A DNA stretch of 64,000 nucleotides. Source: Escherichia phage QL01. A program made the translations under genes and the position numbers. The notes under the pieces were generated by a model. It searched no databases. It was given only the letters and a program-made list of their open reading frames with translations, and was not told where the DNA came from. Below, piece after piece: positions 14,555 to 29,681 of the stretch. The stretch's first letter is position 1. The number at the start of each line of letters is the position of its first letter. The stretch lies in the sequence record NC_028847.1; one strand, written 5' to 3'.

Positions 14555-15076
14555 TTAATAACCTCGGTCCTGGCGAGCAAAGTTCTCGGCATTTTTCAGG
14601 TAATACAGTTTAAAGATTTCTTCAGCAGTCAGTCCAAGACCTTGGAACATATTCAGAACAAAGTGCAGAATATCAATCATTTCGAATTTAATTTCGAGCT
14701 GGTCTTCAGGAGACAAATCGTTAATCAGGGTTTCACGACGTTCAGCATGTTGAGCTTTCCAAGGCTTCCATACAGCGCTCGCATCTTTTTCGCCATTGCT
14801 CATGCCACCAAGAGAAGTCAGAAGTTCGCGGAATTCATCATCAATATAATCTTTCTGATTGCGCAACCAATCAACAACTTCACCTGCAGTAGCCAAGTCA
14901 TCAGGATGACGGTTATATTCAGGTTTATCTTTAGCCAAACGGACCTGTAATGATTTCTGCATATCAAGCATAACCTGCAGAGGGTCTTTATCTTCGTGAA
15001 TCAGAGCATTAAAATAAGCTTCCTCAGCTTTATCAACACCAGCAATAAGTTGTGAGCATTCGTTAAAGTGTGCCAT
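14555..15076 (-). CDS. 56: dCTP pyrophosphatase (MazG-like)
   Basis: 173 aa; size, position between soc and 61; MazG-like helical NTP-PPase pattern. Confidence 0.8.
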   Translation of the reverse strand: MAHFNECSQLIAGVDKAEEAYFNALIHEDKDPLQVMLDMQKSLQVRLAKDKPEYNRHPDDLATAGEVVDWLRNQKDYIDDEFRELLTSLGGMSNGEKDASAVWKPWKAQHAERRETLINDLSPEDQLEIKFEMIDILHFVLNMFQGLGLTAEEIFKLYYLKNAENFARQDRGY

Positions 15077-20201: not shown

Positions 20202-20515
20202 CTCTTAGATTTAATTTTATCCAGTTCTTCTTGTATTTGCATTGTAACACATTTTTCTACATGAAGCGCCAGCTCTTCTTTTCGGTCTTCGGAAGGTGTT
20301 CCGAAATCAACCGACACTTTTCCATCTTTCTCAATAACAATATTCATCACATAAACGATGTGAGCAGTGCCATCGGGTAAAGTAAGCATAATTTCCTGCT
20401 TAACCGATCCCATTGACTTACGGATTATATCTAATGATTTCTCATAATAACGAGGGTCACTAGGACCCTCTTCGGTATCTTTAACAAAATTATCTAAATC
20501 AGATAAATCAGTCAT
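20186..20515 (-). CDS. hypothetical protein (gene 40 position)
   Basis: 109 aa between uvsX and 41. Confidence 0.4.
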   Translation of the reverse strand: MTDLSDLDNFVKDTEEGPSDPRYYEKSLDIIRKSMGSVKQEIMLTLPDGTAHIVYVMNIVIEKDGKVSVDFGTPSEDRKEELALHVEKCVTMQIQEELDKIKSKRWWKW

Positions 20516-21680
20516 CTAAATCCATCTCTTCTAAATCGCTTTCGATGTCAGCGGCGCTTTGGGTATTTCCGCCTAATTTAACAGCAACGTTCTTAGAGAC
20601 ACGAGAGTTAATAAGGTCATTTACCGCATCGTCAACTTCTTTAATAGAATTAATTGCACCAAGCTTATACTTATTCTCGATTGCTTCACGGAACGGGGCA
20701 TGTTTAAACAGCGGTCCCCAGAACTCGACACAATCGGTAGCTTTAGCACGCCATGCTTTTTCTTCTTGAACCATTTCGCCTGTGGTTTCGTCAAGGAATG
20801 CACGATTATACCAGCCAGCTTTAGGTTTCACGACAAAGCCAATATCAGTAGCCATTTCAAGCAATCCACTGAATGGGTCGATACCACCTTCGAAGTTAAC
20901 GGTGATAGGGAACGTTGATTTCTCTTTAACCGTACGAGATTTCTCAGCCTTCAGTGTGAAGTCATAACCAGTGAGCTCGGTACCATCTTTAACCTGACGT
21001 TTAGAGATAAAGAACACGGTAGAAGCAGAGTACAGAATACCAGTACCACCACCCATAATCTCTTTAGGATACATTCCACCAATTTCCATAGCCGTGTGGT
21101 TAATTGCTACACAAGGGATATCCTTGATGGTCAGATAAGGTGTTACGATACGGAACAGAGATTTCAGTGATTTAGCACGAGTCATATCACCTACAACTTT
21201 CTCGTTCAAAGCATCTTCGGTTTCTTTCTTAGAAGCAGTGTTACCGATGGAGTCGATAAAGATAATAACCTTTTCGCCACGAGTAATTTCTTCTAACTGG
21301 TTAGTCATATCAACTTTAAGCTGTTCGACTGACTGGATTGGTGTATGAACCACACGTTCCAAATCAACACCCATCGAACGGAAATAAGATTCTGAAGCAC
21401 CAAACTCAGAGTCATAGAACAAACAAATTGCGTCTGGATATTTCTTCATATATGCCGCAACCATGGTAAGTCCAAACAACGTTTTAAAGTGTTTAGATGG
21501 AGCAGCAAAGATTGTCAAACCTGATTGTAAGCCTGCATTCAACGCACCGCCCAATGCAATATTCAGCATAGGGATACGAGTAGGAACTTCGTCACGACCA
21601 TTAAACAATTTAGATTTGGTCAGGTCGGCGGTCATTTTAGAAGTAGAAGCTTTAATCAAACGGGATTTTAAATCAGACAT
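20508..21680 (-). CDS. uvsX: UvsX RecA-like recombinase
   Basis: 390 aa; RecA-fold motifs; N-terminus as T4 UvsX. Confidence 0.9.
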   Translation of the reverse strand: MSDLKSRLIKASTSKMTADLTKSKLFNGRDEVPTRIPMLNIALGGALNAGLQSGLTIFAAPSKHFKTLFGLTMVAAYMKKYPDAICLFYDSEFGASESYFRSMGVDLERVVHTPIQSVEQLKVDMTNQLEEITRGEKVIIFIDSIGNTASKKETEDALNEKVVGDMTRAKSLKSLFRIVTPYLTIKDIPCVAINHTAMEIGGMYPKEIMGGGTGILYSASTVFFISKRQVKDGTELTGYDFTLKAEKSRTVKEKSTFPITVNFEGGIDPFSGLLEMATDIGFVVKPKAGWYNRAFLDETTGEMVQEEKAWRAKATDCVEFWGPLFKHAPFREAIENKYKLGAINSIKEVDDAVNDLINSRVSKNVAVKLGGNTQSAADIESDLEEMDLDD

Positions 21681-21757
21681 TATATTTTTCCATAGGCATC
21701 ATTATATTTTACTCACGTTTTAAGATAGGGTAATTATATCACTTCACATTTACAGCG

Positions 21758-22651
21758 TTAAAGGACCACGTCCTCATAACTTGGCATTTCGTGCTCAGAA
21801 TGGATGTGGGCACCGAAATAAATGAATTCAGCTAGACCAGGATGGAATACTAAACCGGGATTCTCATGATAAATGATATGAGGTCTTGATTTCAGAATCT
21901 GATAATATTCAACCTTACTCGGTTTGAATTTAATAATCTCTACATCAGGACGATAGTCTTCACGCTTAAATGAATCATTCGGATCGGTGATATAAAGGCG
22001 AGAACCTTCAGCCGCAGCTTGGTCTACAACTCTTTCGAATTGATAACATTTATCAGAGATACGGAATGGATGGAAAATACCATCAATTTTAATAGGCGCT
22101 AGGCCTTCAGAGTAACGCTCAATTACTGCCGGATTAATTACCTTTTGGTCTACAAAAATCTTATCAGAGGACGCACCTCGTGACACCAGGACGTCTTTCT
22201 GGCATTGATTCAGGACTGTGGTATAAATCGAACGTTCAACTGAGGACACGTCGGTATCAATAAACTCGTCGATATAATAACGAGGAACTTCAGGGTCCAT
22301 TGTAATGTTAAAGTTGAATTGTACAGTCTGAGTGCCATCATAACCTGTGATATCGGTTACCAATCCTGAGCAGTCATAGTATTCGATTAACGAATCAACA
22401 ACGAACTCGTTTTCAGACCAAAAATGTTTACGAGTTTCATAAGCATTTTCTTTATACCAAAGCGGTACAAAATTCAGTTCAGGAAATAATTCAATGCATT
22501 CTTTGATATCGCTCGAATTTCTAGGATAAGCCAGATAATCACCTGGGCAAGCACGGTTTAAATGGAGTTGAAAATTACCGTCCTTAAGGACGGCATATTC
22601 ACCTGTTTCGTAACTACGCATACTGAAAATAGGAACGATAAACAAACTCAT
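21758..22651 (-). CDS. hypothetical protein at beta-gt locus; candidate DNA glycosyltransferase
   Basis: 297 aa between uvsX and 42; does not resemble T4 beta-gt as remembered; function inferred from locus only. Confidence 0.35.
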   Translation of the reverse strand: MSLFIVPIFSMRSYETGEYAVLKDGNFQLHLNRACPGDYLAYPRNSSDIKECIELFPELNFVPLWYKENAYETRKHFWSENEFVVDSLIEYYDCSGLVTDITGYDGTQTVQFNFNITMDPEVPRYYIDEFIDTDVSSVERSIYTTVLNQCQKDVLVSRGASSDKIFVDQKVINPAVIERYSEGLAPIKIDGIFHPFRISDKCYQFERVVDQAAAEGSRLYITDPNDSFKREDYRPDVEIIKFKPSKVEYYQILKSRPHIIYHENPGLVFHPGLAEFIYFGAHIHSEHEMPSYEDVVL

Positions 22652-23346
22652 TTCAGGAATCCTCGAACGTAGTCAAAATCACGTTCAAATACGTGTGCAC
22701 TAACCATAGTATGGGAATACGTACCCAGACCAACACCACACTGTTCAGCAATAAAGGCCATCAGTTTACCCTGCAGATAGAAATCCAGCTGCATAACAAT
22801 AGCACAGTTCTGTGAACGCATATGGGTATGTGCATAAAGACGTCCATCACGAATATAATATGTCACTGAATCAGTACATGGATATTCTAAGGATTCGTCA
22901 GAATCAAGGAGGGCTTGGTCTTGTTCTTGGAGAATTTGGAACACAACTCGTCTTGAGTTAGGCTTCTCTTTAAGCTCTTTAAGTAAGGCTGGGAGTTGGG
23001 CCACAATTCTAGGTCCATAGAAAGTGTTGAAGTTTGCAGGCAATACGTCACTTTTCGGCTTATCAATGAACTTAGCAACATTAGGGTATTCCTTAAATGC
23101 TTCGGCGGCGTCAGTACCACCAGAAATCATAAACTTCCAGAAAGATTCGGCATAATCATAGTTGATACGATTAATACGAGGGTCGGTGAATTTATAGGTG
23201 CTTGCATCCAGTACTTCTACCGAAGCAGAACCAATTTCATAACAACGGCCGATACGAGAATCAACTGCAAACTGTGGAGCTTCCAGGATTTCTTCGTTCA
23301 TTTGCTTAAACGCGTTTTCAAAACTAACAGCGGTAATGTGTTTCAT
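22648..23346 (-). CDS. 42: dCMP hydroxymethylase
   Basis: 232 aa; thymidylate-synthase-like motifs SRRVVFQ and YPCTDSVTYYIRDGRLYAHTHMRSQN. Confidence 0.8.
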   Translation of the reverse strand: MKHITAVSFENAFKQMNEEILEAPQFAVDSRIGRCYEIGSASVEVLDASTYKFTDPRINRINYDYAESFWKFMISGGTDAAEAFKEYPNVAKFIDKPKSDVLPANFNTFYGPRIVAQLPALLKELKEKPNSRRVVFQILQEQDQALLDSDESLEYPCTDSVTYYIRDGRLYAHTHMRSQNCAIVMQLDFYLQGKLMAFIAEQCGVGLGTYSHTMVSAHVFERDFDYVRGFLK

Positions 23347-23879
23347 TTATTCACCTTATTTTCAATATATTCATTCAGACGTTTTAATTCTACCATATCG
23401 ACGTTAAGCAAGTTATTATGGCCGTCGTGATTTAAGATTTTAAACACGTTTTCAAAACATGTTTCATATTGCCGGATAGTTAGGTTGAACTCATCTTTGG
23501 TTAATTTAATAAGGTCATCTTCAAAGTCTTTATCCAGTGGATTACGGGTTAAAATAACCTCAATAATATTGAATTCAGATTTAAACCCTTTCCAATCTTC
23601 CAGTTCTACATAAGGGTCCATTTCACCACGAAGGAATCCAGAGTAAACAATATTACTAGGATACCCACGGTCTAAGATGTAGACAAAATTAGGGTCTAAA
23701 AACTTATACAACGTCTCGACTAAAGCCTTGTCATTATCAGTCCCTAATGAAATGCATTTGCCATTAATCTTTTTAGGGAAATCAATAAGACGATATTTCT
23801 TATCAGATAAAAGTGATTCAATTAAAGTAGACTTCCCGGAATTATCCGGGCCGTCGATAACAATGATTTTTGGTTTCAC
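23343..23879 (-). CDS. P-loop nucleoside/nucleotide kinase-like protein
   Basis: 178 aa; Walker A IIVIDGPDNSGKST at N-terminus, dNK/dTMP-kinase-like. Confidence 0.55.
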   Translation of the reverse strand: MKPKIIVIDGPDNSGKSTLIESLLSDKKYRLIDFPKKINGKCISLGTDNDKALVETLYKFLDPNFVYILDRGYPSNIVYSGFLRGEMDPYVELEDWKGFKSEFNIIEVILTRNPLDKDFEDDLIKLTKDEFNLTIRQYETCFENVFKILNHDGHNNLLNVDMVELKRLNEYIENKVNK

Positions 23880-24250
23880 GGATGATATGCCTTATAGGTT
23901 TCAAGAGTTCCTTCACGAACCATTTCTTTAAAGTGGTCAGGACGGATTGCTCGGTCATCGATGATAAAAGTATAACTCGGCTTATGTGTAAGCAGATTGT
24001 GATATTTCAATCCAATCTTTTCAAGGTTCTTAACTAATGCAGGAACTACTTCAACCAAGATTCGACCCGGGCCGCATGAAGTCATACCACGGGCAGTGAA
24101 CAAGGTAATCTCGTACCCTTCATCATAAAGCTTATTAATCATAGACACCATTTCGGTGTCCGGTTTAAAGTTTTCGTAATCACGGTCATCTTGCCAGTGA
24201 GTAATGGTATTATCGATATCAAAACACAGATGCATTAAATTTTCTTCCAT
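23876..24250 (-). CDS. HAD-superfamily phosphatase (small)
   Basis: 124 aa; HAD motif I FDIDNT, motif II LFTARG, motif IV IIDDRA. Confidence 0.55.
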   Translation of the reverse strand: MEENLMHLCFDIDNTITHWQDDRDYENFKPDTEMVSMINKLYDEGYEITLFTARGMTSCGPGRILVEVVPALVKNLEKIGLKYHNLLTHKPSYTFIIDDRAIRPDHFKEMVREGTLETYKAYHP

Positions 24251-25908
24251 TGTTTGTGGAGTTCGGTAGAACCTGTAGGTTTATATTTTACACCAGTTTC
24301 CTGGTCAAGCAAAACCCACTTATCAGGACAACGAGTGATAATTTGAGCCGTGATAGGGTCGCGAACTTCATCAACGAATTCACCTGTGATAAGCTTACGC
24401 TTACGAGGATGCCGCTTCAGCAGCACACTCAGTTGATATAGCCCATTGTAATAAGCGCCCAGAGCTTTCAGAGGGTTATTTTTAAAGTAACCTGCCAATG
24501 CCATCCAGATAACAGCAATCCAGAGCTTGTGCTTAAATGTACACATCGGAATATCATCTAAAGGCATAACCTTTTCAATATCAACGAATACACGAGTTCC
24601 GTTACGAGTTAAGCCACCCCATAGAGGGTCAGAGTTAAATTTGTCATAACCATCGATAGAATAAAGCACCTTAGCTTCATCATAAATCGCAGGGCCTTTA
24701 GAACTATTACCAAAATAACCACGTGGGTCGATGATTTTAATATTACCTTCGTCCGACAACATAATATTACTGTAGTGCGGGTCGCCATGAATAAGTTGGT
24801 ACGGTTCTTTATGTTCAGACAGAATTTCTAAGGCGTGACGAAGAAGTTTTTCTGGGTCGCCTACCTTGAAGTCGTTAACATGGGTAATACCCTGTGGAGC
24901 AAAGCCTTCAATCAATCCGGCAATAGAAGCATTACGAATAAGGACCTTGTCCAATACTTCTTTCTTAACATCAGAATACCATTGCTCATCGGACGGATTA
25001 TCGATAGTTCCACCGAACGAACGTAATGCACTAATAACCTTATAAACCATTAGGACTTTAGTTTCTTTAGACATAAACCGGTAGGCATCTGCCATGGTTC
25101 GACCAAAGATACGTTCCATTTTAATGAATTCACCTGGAGCAAAGTCTACAATGCTAGGAACGAATTCAGAATCAATAGAATTGTACCAATTGATTTCTTT
25201 AGATTGGATTTCTTTACCTAATTCGTTTGTAGGTACTTTAATAGCTAGATTCTCAGTGAACTCTAATTTATTAAATTCACGGTTAATTTCAGAATCTTCA
25301 TGGGCCTTAGCCAGTTTCAGTTTGTCACCAACATCAACTACAAAGTCTAACTTACGTTCAGTCAAATGGACCATTGAATCCAGGTTGTCAGCAAGGTCTT
25401 CACCATAATTAGAACGGTCGAAACCTGTCCAATTAGCCACCTGATACAAGCCAACTACGCCACCACCGGTACCAATTTCACGCAAGTACGGTTCTTCAAA
25501 TGTAAAACGGCAGTCAGTCCCATAGGTATAACAGTAGTCGTTATCCCACTCAACTTTATGACCTTCAGGAATAATATCACACCAGTTAAACAAGACATTG
25601 TGCCCAATGATATCTTCGGCAATGCAATCGATAGCATGAGCCGAACCATTGGCAACATCAACGTTACGAATAGTGAATTTAGGCTTATCACTATTAATCA
25701 TGTTAATGGATTTAATATAGCCTTTAACGAGGTCGTTAAATTTGCTGTGAATAACCAGAATAATTTCATCTGATTGATTACTATACAAATCATACAAATG
25801 TTTTAATACAGTATGTTGTTTGTAGTTAACCAGTACCTTCGGGATTTCGTTGGTAATTGGATACAACCGTGAGCCAAGACCCGCGCCTAAAATAACAACC
25901 TTTTTCAT
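24235..25908 (-). CDS. bifunctional sugar-1-phosphate nucleotidyltransferase / APH-like (anomeric) kinase
   Basis: Start set at Met11 (GAGGAA SD); N-terminal VVILGAGLGSRLYPIT...PKVLV, C-terminal LIHGDPHYSNIM and IIDPRGYFG. Confidence 0.65.
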   Translation of the reverse strand: MKKVVILGAGLGSRLYPITNEIPKVLVNYKQHTVLKHLYDLYSNQSDEIILVIHSKFNDLVKGYIKSINMINSDKPKFTIRNVDVANGSAHAIDCIAEDIIGHNVLFNWCDIIPEGHKVEWDNDYCYTYGTDCRFTFEEPYLREIGTGGGVVGLYQVANWTGFDRSNYGEDLADNLDSMVHLTERKLDFVVDVGDKLKLAKAHEDSEINREFNKLEFTENLAIKVPTNELGKEIQSKEINWYNSIDSEFVPSIVDFAPGEFIKMERIFGRTMADAYRFMSKETKVLMVYKVISALRSFGGTIDNPSDEQWYSDVKKEVLDKVLIRNASIAGLIEGFAPQGITHVNDFKVGDPEKLLRHALEILSEHKEPYQLIHGDPHYSNIMLSDEGNIKIIDPRGYFGNSSKGPAIYDEAKVLYSIDGYDKFNSDPLWGGLTRNGTRVFVDIEKVMPLDDIPMCTFKHKLWIAVIWMALAGYFKNNPLKALGAYYNGLYQLSVLLKRHPRKRKLITGEFVDEVRDPITAQIITRCPDKWVLLDQETGVKYKPTGSTELHKQWKKI

Positions 25909-25968
25909 TATCTGTTCCTCAAGTGAATGTAGGTACATTATACACTATTTTTAATAAATTGGTATTGC

Positions 25969-26469
25969 TTAAATCTTATCTTTACCGATTTCAATACACT
26001 GTTCTATTGCCGCCGGTGCTTTGGTCTTGAGCTTATCGATTTGTTTCTTATAATCACGAGCTTTACCGAAGCTCTCGGTTTCGAGCATTTCGTAATAACG
26101 AGCCTCGTGGATGGAAATCTGTAGATTGATATGGTTTACGCACATCGCATACAGTTTCTGCTTTTTGTACAAATCATCTTGACGCTTCATTTCTGCCTGG
26201 TGTTTGGCTAGTACCGCTTCACGCTTAGACTCTTGTTCACGTTGGAATTCGATTTCCCTTTGAGCATATTTTGCACAGTTATTACCACATTGATTATTGG
26301 CTCGGGTGTACACAAGTCCAGAACCTGCACGGAATTTCATTTCGCCATCGAATTGTTTCTGTTCAGCTGCGATACGAGCTTTACCAACTTCATCAGCCGA
26401 AACTGCATCACCATATTGGACCGCGCAACCTGATAGGAGCATACTCATTGCGATAATTAACTTTTTCAT
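25969..26469 (-). CDS. putative lipoprotein with coiled-coil region
   Basis: 166 aa; signal peptide with lipobox LLSGC. Confidence 0.5.
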   Translation of the reverse strand: MKKLIIAMSMLLSGCAVQYGDAVSADEVGKARIAAEQKQFDGEMKFRAGSGLVYTRANNQCGNNCAKYAQREIEFQREQESKREAVLAKHQAEMKRQDDLYKKQKLYAMCVNHINLQISIHEARYYEMLETESFGKARDYKKQIDKLKTKAPAAIEQCIEIGKDKI

Positions 26470-26476
26470 AATATCC

Positions 26477-26614
26477 TCAATTAAAACAGTTATACTTAAT
26501 TTGTGCTATAAGAATAATCCATCCGATGATTAGTGTCGGAATCATTGGCGGAATTGCCACTGCCCAATAAATGGTAAAGGCAGTCATTATAAGAAATAAA
26601 ATAATTATTTTCAT
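26477..26614 (-). CDS. small hydrophobic membrane peptide (imm.1-like)
   Basis: Hand-called 45 aa MKIIILFLIMTAFTIYWAVAIPPMIPTLIIGWIILIAQ; ATGA overlap with upstream gene. Confidence 0.4.
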   Translation of the reverse strand: MKIIILFLIMTAFTIYWAVAIPPMIPTLIIGWIILIAQIKYNCFN

Positions 26615-26847
26615 TGCTTAACAATAATGATTTGTGCATTTGATTTACGTTCAGCGACGATAGCCCAGATTAAAGCCACTACCCAACCAATCATCGTCCA
26701 GCCTAACAGGAGATTAAGGAAGAAAATTCCGACATTACTACGAGTGCCTCGCAGAAGAGCCAGAATCCATGGTAAAAAGTAACCGATGAACATAATAACC
26801 AGAGAACCGAATCCTAAAACACCAGCACTAACGATTAAAGCTTCCAT
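26611..26847 (-). CDS. imm: Imm-like membrane protein (superinfection immunity)
   Basis: 78 aa, two predicted TM helices; immediately upstream of gene 43 as in T4. Confidence 0.5.
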   Translation of the reverse strand: MEALIVSAGVLGFGSLVIMFIGYFLPWILALLRGTRSNVGIFFLNLLLGWTMIGWVVALIWAIVAERKSNAQIIIVKQ

Positions 26848-26877
26848 TGTAATTTCCTCATGTAGTTGATAGGAAGG

Positions 26878-26907
26878 ATACTACCACGTTCCTTGTGGTA
26901 TGTAAAC
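26878..26907 (-). promoter_or_regulatory. early-type promoter cassette
   Basis: GTTTAC, 18 nt, TAGTAT. Confidence 0.5.
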
Positions 26908-26909
26908 AC

Positions 26910-29621
26910 TTAAAAGTCGAACATATCAAATAATGTTGCTTTTTTCTCGTAGTCGATTTTAGCAGACTCAGTAAAACCGGTCAGAGGTTTGATAAAGGTC
27001 TTTTGGAACAGTACGTTGTAGTCCATCCAACGGAGGACTTGGTCACGAATCTGAACCGGAAGTTCAATACCTGACGGCCATGCCATACAAGCTTCACCAA
27101 ACGGGTTGCCTTCTTTAAGTGGCAGTACATATACCTTTTCACCATCAACGATACGAGGCATAGTCAAATCACCTGCAGAAGCACGCATGTAAGCTAAGCA
27201 ACCTTTGATGTGGTATGGACATTTAGAACCCGGGAATCCACCTTCATTATATTTCTCGATGTTGTTAGCACTGGATACTGCTGCAATGCTTACATAATCG
27301 AGTTCGTTAAATTCCTTATTAAACTGTTTGAAATATTCTTGCAAAGATGCCTCGCCTTCCTGAAGCATACGACGGATACATTCCTTCAGAGCTTTCTGAA
27401 CTGCTTTAGGTGTACTTGATTTCTGAGTTTCGAGACCCATGATTTTCAAGTGTGGTTCAGCATAACGAGTACCTTCCATGTCCCAAACGTTAAGTGCATA
27501 ACGTTTCTTGCCTGTCCAGAATCCACCAAGGCCTTTAGAACCAAGTGGAGGACCTGCGATAGCTTCTCGGTCCATGAACATCAAGTGTTGTTTGTTGTTC
27601 ATGTATTCGCACATCTCACGGAAGCCTGCATCAATAGCTGGTTCCATACGTTCACGTGCAAATTTATCTAAGAAGTCGACCCAGTGGTTAGTATCACGGA
27701 ATTTATCTTCGCCTACTTTATTGATGATTGCATCTGCCTTAACATAAATGGAGTCAGTATCACCGTAGAGCACGAACTTCTGGTTTTCAGTCTTACACAC
27801 GCTATTCAGATATTCGTTAACCTTACGTTCAATCCATTGGAGGGCCATTTGACCAAACAATGTGATTGCAGTTGCGTTCCTGAGGTCATAGTAACGGAAC
27901 CATACGTTACCAAGTGCACCATAAAGGGAGTTGATAAGCAACTTACGGTTAATCTGAGCAGTGTTACCTGCAACTTCAGTGAGCTCGGCTTTCTTCAACA
28001 TTTCTCTTAAAGAAGGCGCTGACAGTGCTTTAATCTGGGCTTTGATTTCGTCAGAGAAGTCAAAACGATAATCGATATCCAGTGGACTATCAACTGAGAG
28101 ATTAGGATTTTCCAATGCTTCTTTAATTAACTCACCATTACGTTGAGCTGCAAGCATGTAACCTTTATGTTCTTTACGCTGCAAGAATACCTTGGTGATT
28201 TCTGTCGGAATCACACCTTCACGGTCTTTATAGTACATCATGCCGTTAGGAGAGCAACTGTAGGTGTCGCTAGGACGCTGAGCAGTTCCGGCAATATATT
28301 CATGTATCGGTGCGTTAGCGAATGTCCCTGCGATGGTCTCTGGGCTTATATTCACTTGTCGAATGATACTCGGATACAGAGATGTAAGGTCGAAACTCAT
28401 TACATATTTGTAAGCGTTAGGAATCGGTTCCTTAACGAAAGCACCAGGATAAGGTTGGACCACGTGTGAGCGAGCTTGTGGAATTACCTTGCCTTGTTCT
28501 TTAAGGCTATTAAAGATAATAGCGTCCCAAGTCTTAATTGGGCTGAACACCGACTGAATCTGCATCTTGGCATAATAACCCATGTCCAAACTCAGAAGAA
28601 TGAACTGACGCTTCATATCAATCTGCACTACACGATATACGTCGATAATGTTATAGGAAATATATCGTTGGTGGTTCGTCTCACGTAACTTGGAGATTGG
28701 GCCATCATATTTCAACTTACCTACTTTCAATTCATATTCAGAAACATAATCCAGAGAATAAGAAGGCTGGTTGGTGAAGCTGAATTTTTTATAGAGGTCG
28801 ATATAATCCAGAACAGAGATACCGAACAATGTAATGATTTCACGAGCACCGTACATGTTCTCAATAACTTTAACACGAGTTTTACGATGTGGGCTTAATC
28901 GCTTAGCAGTGTTCTCACCGAACAGATTTTTCAGACGGTTATAAACGTACGGTACGTCAAACGACTCAACGTTCCATCCAGTCAAAATCACAGGAGTTTT
29001 CTGTTGCCAGAAATTCAAGTACTCAAGCATCATTTCTTCTTCAGAATTAAACGGAAGATAAACGATTTTGTCAATGATTTCTTGTGGAACTTCGTCACCG
29101 CCTTCGTCTTGGAGTTTCTCAGCGATTTTAATCGACCACTCTTCGACAGTACCATAAGGCGAAACTAAAAGGTCGAATACATAGAATTTATCGTCAATCG
29201 AGTCGTAGTGGGTAATGGCATCGATAGGATGTTTAGCCTGAGCTGGTTCAGGGAATCCATCAGGAGATGTTACCTCGATGTCGAAGTTAGCAATACGAAT
29301 CTTAGAAGAATCATATTTGATTTCTTTACGATAGGTATCAGACAAATAGGCTAATTTATAGTCGTCCATACCCAGGGCTTCGAGACCCATATCATCCATA
29401 CGTTTCATCCATTGGGATGCATCACGCATAGAATCGAATTCTTTCTTAACACAACCCTTACCATAGATATCAATGTATTTTACGGCTTGCTCTGGATTAG
29501 CATGCATAAACATTGTAGGCTTGTAAGGAACTTCACGACTACGTTCGTTACCATTTTTATCGATGTAACGTTCGAGAATATTATCACCGATTTGTTCGAC
29601 TGTCAAATAGAATTCTTGCAT
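26910..29621 (-). CDS. 43: DNA polymerase (family B)
   Basis: Start at MQEFYLTVEQIGD (AAGGAA SD), 903 aa; exonuclease FDIEV and polymerase YGDTDS motifs; very close to RB69 gp43 as remembered. Confidence 0.95.
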   Translation of the reverse strand: MQEFYLTVEQIGDNILERYIDKNGNERSREVPYKPTMFMHANPEQAVKYIDIYGKGCVKKEFDSMRDASQWMKRMDDMGLEALGMDDYKLAYLSDTYRKEIKYDSSKIRIANFDIEVTSPDGFPEPAQAKHPIDAITHYDSIDDKFYVFDLLVSPYGTVEEWSIKIAEKLQDEGGDEVPQEIIDKIVYLPFNSEEEMMLEYLNFWQQKTPVILTGWNVESFDVPYVYNRLKNLFGENTAKRLSPHRKTRVKVIENMYGAREIITLFGISVLDYIDLYKKFSFTNQPSYSLDYVSEYELKVGKLKYDGPISKLRETNHQRYISYNIIDVYRVVQIDMKRQFILLSLDMGYYAKMQIQSVFSPIKTWDAIIFNSLKEQGKVIPQARSHVVQPYPGAFVKEPIPNAYKYVMSFDLTSLYPSIIRQVNISPETIAGTFANAPIHEYIAGTAQRPSDTYSCSPNGMMYYKDREGVIPTEITKVFLQRKEHKGYMLAAQRNGELIKEALENPNLSVDSPLDIDYRFDFSDEIKAQIKALSAPSLREMLKKAELTEVAGNTAQINRKLLINSLYGALGNVWFRYYDLRNATAITLFGQMALQWIERKVNEYLNSVCKTENQKFVLYGDTDSIYVKADAIINKVGEDKFRDTNHWVDFLDKFARERMEPAIDAGFREMCEYMNNKQHLMFMDREAIAGPPLGSKGLGGFWTGKKRYALNVWDMEGTRYAEPHLKIMGLETQKSSTPKAVQKALKECIRRMLQEGEASLQEYFKQFNKEFNELDYVSIAAVSSANNIEKYNEGGFPGSKCPYHIKGCLAYMRASAGDLTMPRIVDGEKVYVLPLKEGNPFGEACMAWPSGIELPVQIRDQVLRWMDYNVLFQKTFIKPLTGFTESAKIDYEKKATLFDMFDF

Positions 29622-29636
29622 TTCATTTCCTTTATA

Positions 29637-29652
29637 GACGAGTGATTGTCTT
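29637..29652 (-). promoter_or_regulatory. gene 43 translational operator-like hairpin
   Basis: mRNA hairpin AGAC-AAUCACUC-GUCU (8-nt loop) just 5' of UAUAAAGGAAAUG... resembles the gp43 autoregulatory operator of T4/RB69. Confidence 0.45.
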
Positions 29653-29681
29653 TTGTTTGTTGATGAATCATTATACTCCAA

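Follow-up and report, generated by a model that had tools for sequence, protein, structure and literature searches.

Which pathway is encoded by the genes that separate gene 42 from imm in Escherichia phage QL01? We addressed this question in a 64,000-nucleotide stretch of its genome (record NC_028847.1; hereafter the window), whose region 21700-26900 shares 99.3% identity with Escherichia phage WG01 and 93–97% with phages Bp7, JS10, JS98 and IME08; WG01 belongs to the genus Dhakavirus of the family Straboviridae, and so does the window. An earlier note on this DNA had pointed to three minus-strand genes at 23343-25908, encoding a P-loop kinase, a minimal HAD phosphatase and a fusion of a nucleotidyltransferase with an APH-type kinase, and had proposed that together they make an activated sugar other than glucose for the decoration of 5-hydroxymethylcytosine (hmC), the supposed product of gene 42. 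The three open reading frames (ORFs) and all quoted motifs are indeed present at these positions, and T4 does carry just imm and imm.1 between its genes 42 and 43. Our analysis points, with high confidence, to a larger unit and a different base: a five-gene minus-strand module that replaces cytosine in the phage DNA by arabinosyl-5-hydroxycytosine, the sugar donor being provided by the fusion and the HAD protein. In the proposed scheme, the APH-fold kinase domain at the C-terminus of the fusion would phosphorylate D-arabinose-5-phosphate (Ara5P) at C1 to yield arabinofuranose-1,5-bisphosphate, the small HAD phosphatase would strip off the 5-phosphate, and the N-terminal nucleotidyltransferase domain would convert arabinofuranose-1-phosphate and UTP to UDP-D-arabinofuranose. 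These donor-branch steps have been shown for orthologs, from which we infer them for this phage. A thymidylate synthase (TS) homolog would hydroxylate dCMP to 5-hydroxy-dCMP (5hodCMP), nucleotide kinases and then replication would bring 5-hydroxycytosine (5hoC) into DNA, and a 297-residue transferase would join arabinose to the 5-OH of 5hoC. The remaining member of the module, a Tmk-like P-loop kinase, most likely acts in the nucleotide branch.

The 557-residue fusion comprises an N-terminal sugar-1-phosphate nucleotidyltransferase domain (approximately residues 1–205, nucleotides 25294-25908; motif VVILGAGLGSRLYPIT...PKVLV) and a C-terminal APH/ChoK-fold kinase domain (approximately residues 206–499, nucleotides 24412-25293; motifs HGDPHYSN and IIDPRG). 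Both domains exceeded the Pfam gathering score (NTP_transferase, 2.5e-8; APH, 9e-6), and the MurU profile NF045697 matched at 2.2e-5. When an AlphaFold2 (AF2) model of the protein (predicted local distance difference test score, pLDDT, 93.9; predicted template modelling score, pTM, 0.90) was searched with Foldseek, the N-domain retrieved MurU (4y7t; TM 0.68 on target, E 5.5e-8), RmlA, HddC and related sugar-1-phosphate nucleotidyltransferases, while the C-domain retrieved the aminoglycoside 2''-phosphotransferase APH(2'')-IIIa (3tdv), in agreement with the MurU/RmlA-like and APH-like character that had been read from the motifs. A sequence search of the PDB returned weak nucleotidyltransferase matches alone, HddC among them, the PDB having no AfhE structure on deposit. 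Homologs spanning at least 80% of the query were found in 366 phage records. Across 73 aligned homologs, no variation is seen at the nucleotidyltransferase residues G10, R14, K24 and D111 (the GxGxR...PK signature and the metal-binding Asp) or, in the kinase domain, at K224, E238, H374, G375, D376, N381 and D394 (the HGDxxxxN signature and the Asp of IDPRG).

Functional assignment of the fusion derives from its homology to a 562-residue ORF of phage HY126, which extends from end to end (557 of 562 residues, 42.7% identity, E 3e-143). We identify this ORF as AfhE because it is syntenic with AfhF (PDB entry 9IQW) and described in PMC13326640. According to the account given there, which cites He et al. 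2026, AfhE of HY126 unites an Ara5P kinase with a UDP-arabinose pyrophosphorylase, and gp52:53 and gp51 of RB69 are the counterparts of AfhE and AfhF. Thomas et al. 2018 had already listed the Dhakavirus protein IME08 gp43 as homologous to RB69 ORF53_52c over its full length, and the ortholog TH1_060 of phage Thanatos is essential for phage propagation (PMC12838424). The fusion thus has the two-domain architecture, the end-to-end homology and both motif sets of an AfhE-type enzyme, and we predict that it forms UDP-arabinofuranose from Ara5P-derived sugar phosphate. The earlier view that a sugar kinase/nucleotidyltransferase fusion in this role awaited characterization is overtaken by HY126 AfhE/AfhF, as relayed from He et al. 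2026 in PMC13326640, and by the public entry 9IQW.

With regard to the extent of the protein, we rejected a 567-residue version starting at the in-frame ATG at 25938: this codon overlaps TATAAT, a GAGGA motif lies ahead of the later ATG (25908), and the WG01 annotation also gives 557 residues. Beyond the kinase domain the fusion carries a 58-residue C-terminal tail (residues 500–557, nucleotides 24238-24411) with the motif T[KR]CPxKWxLxDxET...Y.P.G, followed by the stop codon. The tail occurs in 42–44 of the 73 aligned homologs, is missing from those at 33% identity or less, and is modelled as short strands with a pLDDT of 83–93. A homolog from Vibrio phage D486, shorter and located in an unrelated NAD/queuosine context, was set aside in the module comparison. 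In addition, three metagenomic proteins from very AT-rich DNA (P0068, P0074 and P0093; 922–946 residues) unite HAD, SIS isomerase, nucleotidyltransferase and kinase domains in a single chain. These chains offer an independent clue, at the level of domain architecture, that the four activities may be functionally linked. The one metagenomic fusion examined for its surroundings (locus L010, 10001-12775) has glycosyltransferase genes of families GT25, GT11 and GT2 as neighbours, and such four-domain proteins suggest that the same pentose-activation pathway serves glycans outside phage DNA modification.

The gene following the fusion encodes the small HAD protein. Its maximal ORF has 124 codons, with a likely start at ATG 24235 (119 residues) that overlaps the fusion stop codon as TAATG at 24235-24237; the corresponding HY126 pair likewise overlaps, by 1 nucleotide. 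The motifs FDIDNT...IIDDRA are located in this ORF, and the residues of the four HAD motifs (DxD, T/S, K and DD; D11, D13, T52, K90, D98 and D99) do not vary across 47 sequences. Although the protein stays below the Pfam threshold (Hydrolase_3, 0.025), its AF2 model (pLDDT 90.1) had as top Foldseek match 9IQW (62% identity, E 6e-17, TM 0.86), released on 2025-07-16 and deposited as 'phage HY126 encoded D-arabinose 1,5-diphosphate phosphatase AfhF'. A profile search against 9iqw_A reached 4.9e-47, and the overlapping downstream ORF of HY126 (128 residues) is 62% identical (E 1e-62). The GmhB structures 3l8h and 4pnh were also among the fold matches. AfhF is described as an Mg-dependent phosphatase that converts arabinose-1,5-bisphosphate to arabinose-1-phosphate, as PMC13326640 reports from He et al. 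2026. By homology, the window protein is predicted to be an AfhF-type arabinose-1,5-bisphosphate 5-phosphatase. The title of the deposited ortholog bears on the fusion as well, since a 1,5-diphosphate intermediate implies that the kinase domain acts on a sugar 5-phosphate. The earlier note had likened the fusion to AmgK/MurU: the folds agree, whereas the characterized ortholog phosphorylates Ara5P at C1 and leaves it to the HAD enzyme to remove the 5-phosphate. Public labels for the HAD gene, namely 'phosphoheptose isomerase', which stems from PHROG 1238, and 'capsule biosynthesis protein', are unsupported, because the protein contains no SIS domain and matched HAD families only. A tblastn hit at 14762-14983 (E 0.006), considered as another HAD paralog, was rejected as a chance match inside the ORF of a gp56-type dCTPase.

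We then asked which base receives the sugar. The window's 'gene 42' product is 79% identical (E 1.5e-125) to the protein in PDB entries 9IQU, 9IQC and 9IR2, whose sequence agrees at 100% identity with the HY126 ORF; the latter is in turn 98.7% identical to the RB69 homolog, HY126 being a Mosigvirus. Similarity to T4 gp42 is distant (1b49 at E 4.7e-6; 25% identity and E 5e-9 by tblastn). The enzymes of RB69 and DLP3 make 5hodCMP with flavin and O2, and exchange of ThyA Asp169 for Asn is diagnostic of such a synthase (PMC13326640). At this site the window and HY126 proteins read RSQN, as compared to RSCD in E. coli ThyA and RSND in T4 gp42. The catalytic Cys is kept, and N177 is replaced by D, as expected for an enzyme acting on dCMP. 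Because of the D169N exchange and the weak similarity to gp42, we predict a flavin/O2-dependent 5-hydroxy-dCMP synthase and reject a T4 gp42-type dCMP hydroxymethylase. 5-Hydroxycytosine rather than hmC is the most likely base, and the hmC synthesis ascribed to this gene by the earlier note is to be revised. In the same vein, the base of RB69 was called ara-hmC in the older literature (PMC6024577), an assignment later judged erroneous (PMC13390438).

No alpha-gt, beta-gt or imm.1 homolog was detected in the window or in the rest of the near-identical WG01 genome (best tblastn E 0.05), as the earlier note had said of the two T4 transferases. A transferase, however, is not lacking. The T4 beta-gt position is occupied by the 297-residue ORF, joined to the TS gene by an ATGA overlap. 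This ORF is 67% identical (E 6e-149) to a 299-residue ORF of HY126 that is syntenic with RB69 gp46:47, for which glycosyltransferase (GT) fold matches have been reported and a role as base-proximal arabinosyltransferase proposed (PMC13326640). It also matched PHROG 3891, a family with no assigned function, at 1e-158, and gp215 of Rhizobium phage RL38J1, annotated 'galactosyltransferase 1' and proposed to be the first glycosyltransferase of that phage, at 24% identity (E 2e-10). Pfam and PDB sequence searches with the ORF gave no match. We predict from these relationships a GT-B DNA arabinosyltransferase of the RB69 gp46:47 type. Based on the homology to HY126 and RB69, the sugar is almost certainly not glucose but arabinose, as the earlier note had suspected from RB69-like phages.

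The clade to which the window belongs has a reduced set of accessory genes. Searching the window and the rest of WG01 by tblastn with HY126 and RB69 proteins, we found no Ara5P isomerase, U32-like protein or second, gp3-type transferase. The isomerase is present in 276 phage records, compared to 366 with the fusion; the Klebsiella and Proteus phages do not carry it, nor do about 38 of the Escherichia records, and this isomerase-less set coincides with the clade in which identity to the window's fusion is 71% or higher. E. coli makes Ara5P through KdsD/GutQ in the 3-deoxy-D-manno-octulosonate (Kdo) pathway. The simplest reading is therefore that phages devoid of the isomerase would take their Ara5P from these host enzymes. 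Likewise, having one transferase, the phage probably adds a single arabinose, by analogy to Thanatos, a single-transferase phage with mono-arabinosylated DNA (PMC13326640). As to the U32-like gene, a Peptidase_U32-family member (Pfam 7e-11) lies inside the Mosigvirus module (HY126 locus L004, 6543-7703; RB69 gp50) and is absent from Dhakavirus. The U32-family proteins RlhA and TrhP act in O2-independent 5-hydroxylation of C in rRNA and U in tRNA, respectively. The U32-like gene might allow Mosigviruses, unlike Dhakaviruses, to form 5hoC under anaerobic conditions; in PMC13326640 it is labelled just 'sugar or heterocycle reductase'.

The P-loop kinase (motif IIVIDGPDNSGKST), the third gene of the pathway originally envisaged, probably belongs elsewhere. 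Its GTG start codon overlaps the stop codon of the HAD gene (GTGA), which it directly follows in our comparison of region 21758-25908. It matched PHROG 761 'thymidylate kinase' at 2.4e-39 but remained under the curated Tmk cut-offs (Pfam Thymidylate_kin, 15.1 vs 27 bits; TIGR00041, 19 vs 83 bits). Matches to Cmk and Tmk profiles were weak, below the Pfam and NCBIfam cut-offs. A PDB sequence search gave nothing useful (a weak match to YorR, E 0.033). We accordingly call the protein Tmk-like after PHROG 761 and reject the public annotation as a plain thymidylate kinase. It is 36% identical (E 2e-33) to a 182-residue kinase of HY126 and homologous to RB69 gp45, which has Tmk fold matches (PMC13326640). 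In HY126 and RB69, the gp45-type kinase lies downstream of the transferase, at the end of the module opposite to AfhE/AfhF. The order TS, GT, kinase in HY126 (L004) is shared by RL38J1 (L011), as against kinase, TS, GT in the window. RL38J1 keeps this trio without the arabinose genes, its DNA carrying hexoses (galactose and glucose) on 5hoC; its kinase is weakly similar to that of the window (E 0.012). Because of the position far from AfhE/AfhF in HY126 and RB69 and the RL38J1 trio, we group the kinase with the TS homolog and the transferase, and it probably serves the nucleotide branch rather than the sugar side. Its substrate would be a 5-hydroxycytosine-derived nucleotide and not a sugar. 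The three genes of the earlier proposal are therefore split: the fusion and the HAD protein, for which synthesis of an activated sugar holds, form the donor branch, and the kinase more likely falls to the TS/transferase side.

Two other roles for this kinase deserve consideration, neither of which we think likely. It could belong to the donor branch after all, for instance as a UMP/CMP kinase raising UTP for UDP-arabinose, a role to which we assign a small probability. The gene does have the HAD gene on one side and the TS gene on the other, with translational coupling at either junction, its distribution in Straboviridae is near that of the fusion (342 vs 366 records, with identical host genera), and the weak Cmk and Tmk profile matches would suit such an activity. 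This placement is opposed by the remote position of the HY126/RB69 kinase beside the transferase, by the TS-GT-kinase order that RL38J1 retains without arabinose genes, and by the fusion-bearing Vibrio and Sphingomonas PAU phages, which are not among the kinase matches at E < 1e-3. Alternatively, and with a similarly low likelihood, sugar might be added before replication: the 297-residue transferase would arabinosylate free 5hodCMP, the Tmk-like kinase would phosphorylate arabinosyl-5hodCMP, and the polymerase would incorporate the glycosylated dNTP. An RB69 gp1-type dNMP kinase converts 5hodCMP to 5hodCDP, and the bulky arabinosyl-5hodCMP may be beyond such an ordinary enzyme. Conservation of the TS-GT-kinase trio from Mosigvirus to Pootjesviridae and the translational coupling in the window fit this order of events, as does the finding that the DLP3 transferases gp76, gp77 and gp79, the last of them predicted to be base-proximal, each failed on 5hoC-DNA in vitro when used singly (PMC13326640). 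The experiments of that study do not separate nucleotide-level from DNA-level sugar addition.

Several points weigh against the assignment of arabinosyl-5-hydroxycytosine to this phage. No chemical analysis of any Dhakavirus DNA was found in the literature open to reading; the functions of this phage's enzymes are assigned from orthologs; and the fold of the transferase and the substrate of the kinase are likewise deduced by comparison. The account of the biochemistry in PMC13326640 is internally inconsistent, its Table 1 giving Ara5P to Ara to Ara1P (arabinose-1-phosphate) and its text the 1,5-bisphosphate route. Furthermore, the fusion is just 43% identical to the characterized enzyme and carries clade-specific changes, E85V and Y91H in the nucleotidyltransferase and C326N, N378H and F379Y beyond it, scored at columns at least 95% conserved in 31 other Straboviridae-type homologs assumed to be isomerase-bearing. 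Of these, N378H and F379Y alter the kinase catalytic loop from HGDPNFSN to HGDPHYSN.

Such substitutions, present in both active-site regions, raise the question of whether the Dhakavirus/Klebsiella/Proteus-phage clade follows the same logic with another sugar, for example by turning ribose-5-phosphate into a different UDP-pentose. N378H and F379Y may bear on sugar specificity, the genome has no isomerase, in line with the excess of fusion over isomerase records, and no chemical data were found for the isomerase-less clade. We nevertheless consider another pentose very unlikely. E. coli supplies Ara5P by KdsD/GutQ, which makes a phage isomerase unneeded; 126 of the 145 conserved columns are identical in the clade; N378H is found in the mono-arabinosylated Thanatos as well; and identity to the arabinose enzymes amounts to 62% for the HAD protein and 67% for the transferase. 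In addition, Dhakaviruses are named among the clades with a syntenic arabinosylation cluster (PMC13326640). About as unlikely is the original three-gene salvage scheme, which would begin with AmgK-like phosphorylation of a free pentose at the anomeric carbon, followed by MurU-like uridylylation and attachment to gene-42 hmC, with the P-loop kinase and the HAD protein as extra sugar steps: the fold matches to MurU 4y7t and APH, the NF045697 hit, the wording of Table 1 in PMC13326640 and the older ara-hmC label of RB69 (PMC6024577) speak for it, but it founders on a HAD ortholog deposited as an arabinose 1,5-diphosphate phosphatase, on a TS homolog with D169N that resembles a solved 5hodCMP synthase far more than gp42 (E 5e-6), on the dismissal of 'ara-hmC' as erroneous (PMC13390438), and on the Tmk-like family standing beside TS and GT in the hexose-using RL38J1 too.

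As for the arrangement of these components, the genes from polymerase to uvsX all lie on the minus strand, and the module runs in the order AfhE-like fusion, AfhF-like phosphatase, Tmk-like kinase, TS homolog and 297-residue transferase. At all four junctions from fusion to transferase, stop and start codons overlap (TAATG, GTGA, ATGA and ATGA, as read from the sequence), and the five genes form one translationally coupled operon. An extended -10-like element, TGTATAAT, is assigned as module promoter by inference only, because a consensus promoter and terminator scan of the module region did not rise above shuffled expectation.

Features of the module and its surroundings in the window, from DNA polymerase to uvsX in transcription order, followed by the distal dCTPase homolog and the module leader
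Feature	Position	Strand	Basis or remark
DNA polymerase	26910-29681	-	first in transcription order
imm	26611-26847	-	next after DNA polymerase
45-residue hydrophobic ORF	26477-26614	-	between imm and the 166-residue ORF
166-residue lipoprotein-like ORF	25969-26469	-	signal MKKLIIAMSMLLSGC; PHROG 1754 (function not assigned), 1e-51
AfhE-like nucleotidyltransferase/kinase fusion, 557 residues	24235-25908	-	Pfam, HY126 homology, AF2 model
AfhF-like small HAD phosphatase	23876-24250	-	structural match 9IQW, HAD motifs
Tmk-like P-loop nucleotide kinase, 178 residues, GTG start	23343-23879	-	PHROG 761; RB69 gp45 homolog
Thymidylate synthase homolog, 232 residues ('gene 42')	22648-23346	-	9IQU/9IQC/9IR2 homology, D169N
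Predicted base-proximal DNA arabinosyltransferase, 297 residues	21758-22651	-	RB69 gp46:47 homology
uvsX	20508-21680	-	last in listed order
gp56-type dCTPase/dUTPase homolog, 173 residues	14555-15076	-	Pfam dUTPase_2 3.2e-6, above gathering score
Module leader	25909-25944	-	-10-like TGTATAAT at 25944-25937; Shine-Dalgarno GAGGA at 25920-25916, 7 nucleotides before ATG 25908

We also considered whether the module is a recent horizontal insertion and rejected this, given that its dip in GC content is mild (0.35–0.36 vs 0.38–0.43), that fusion homologs occur in 366 phage records over many genera, and that the five genes form a coupled operon. Homologs of both imm and the gp56-type dCTPase were found in this phage. 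The latter would supply dCMP to the 5hodCMP synthase in an accessory role, by analogy to gp56 in the T4 pathway (PMC2993671) and in keeping with the assignment of RB69 gp28 (PMC13326640). Between the AfhE-like gene and imm sits the lipoprotein-like ORF, which has no counterpart in the HY126/RB69 module; given its place beside imm, one might speculate about a role in superinfection exclusion. The adjacent 45-residue ORF is 60% identical to a 47-residue ORF of HY126 located between the isomerase and AfhE, a small membrane peptide thus being kept beside the module in both genera.

The pathway itself is already known: its description dates from 2018, and biochemical and structural work of 2025–2026 resolved it, with Dhakaviruses explicitly included. 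Arabinosyl-5-hydroxycytosine blocks restriction enzymes and CRISPR nucleases and exposes the phage DNA to type IV systems. Because the modification protects from nucleases yet renders the phage vulnerable in this way, host-range prediction and phage engineering profit from knowledge of its presence in therapeutic coliphages. What the window offers in practice is a correction, in that a 'gene 42' label is no evidence for hmC. Public Dhakavirus annotations of the module genes are misleading: RefSeq labels (e.g. NC_031928 ORF43-46) read 'hypothetical protein' for the fusion, 'capsule biosynthesis protein' or 'phosphoheptose isomerase' for the HAD gene and 'thymidylate synthase' for the 5hodCMP synthase, and the P-loop gene is publicly annotated as 'thymidylate kinase'.

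Among known systems, the module shares with HY126 AfhE/AfhF, RB69 gp52:53/gp51 and DLP3 gp82/gp81 the two-domain fusion followed by an overlapping small HAD gene, and with HY126 and RB69 the D169N TS homolog and the gp46:47-type transferase between DNA polymerase and uvsX. It differs from HY126 and RB69 in that its clade has no isomerase, no U32-like gene and just one transferase, the gp3-type one being absent, in that the Tmk-like kinase lies between the HAD and TS genes and not downstream of the transferase, and in that imm and the lipoprotein-like ORF separate the polymerase gene from the module; a few clade-specific active-site substitutions set it apart as well. With gp42, alpha-gt and beta-gt of T4, it has in common the uvsX-polymerase neighbourhood and the division of labour in which a TS-family enzyme alters dCMP and a transferase adds the sugar. 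Unlike in T4, however, the predicted base is 5-hydroxylated, homologs of alpha-gt and beta-gt are lacking, and the donor would be made by the phage instead of being the host's UDP-glucose. The AmgK/MurU pair of Pseudomonas, which salvages N-acetylmuramic acid (MurNAc), also combines an APH-fold kinase forming a sugar 1-phosphate with a minimal sugar-1-phosphate uridylyltransferase. These are separate proteins acting on a free amino sugar with no phosphatase, whereas the phage has one chain, a dedicated HAD phosphatase and, going by the reported activity of the ortholog (PMC13326640), a sugar-5-phosphate substrate. Having the folds alone in common, the phage enzymes are not members of this salvage pair. 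In the ADP-heptose pathway, the SIS isomerase GmhA is followed by the kinase/nucleotidyltransferase HldE and by GmhB, a HAD-type 1,7-bisphosphate 7-phosphatase. The sequence of steps is the same, with C1 phosphorylation to a bisphosphate, removal of the distal phosphate by a HAD enzyme and activation by a fused nucleotidyltransferase, and the likeness extends to the fold matches of the HAD protein to GmhB and of the nucleotidyltransferase to the heptose-1-phosphate guanylyltransferase HddC. The phage system differs in its pentose substrate, in an APH/ChoK instead of a PfkB kinase, in an RmlA/MurU-type instead of a cytidylyltransferase-type nucleotidyltransferase and, compared to HldE, in the order nucleotidyltransferase then kinase within the chain. 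In its logic, the donor branch comes closest to ADP-heptose synthesis, which is an analogy and no sign of common family membership.

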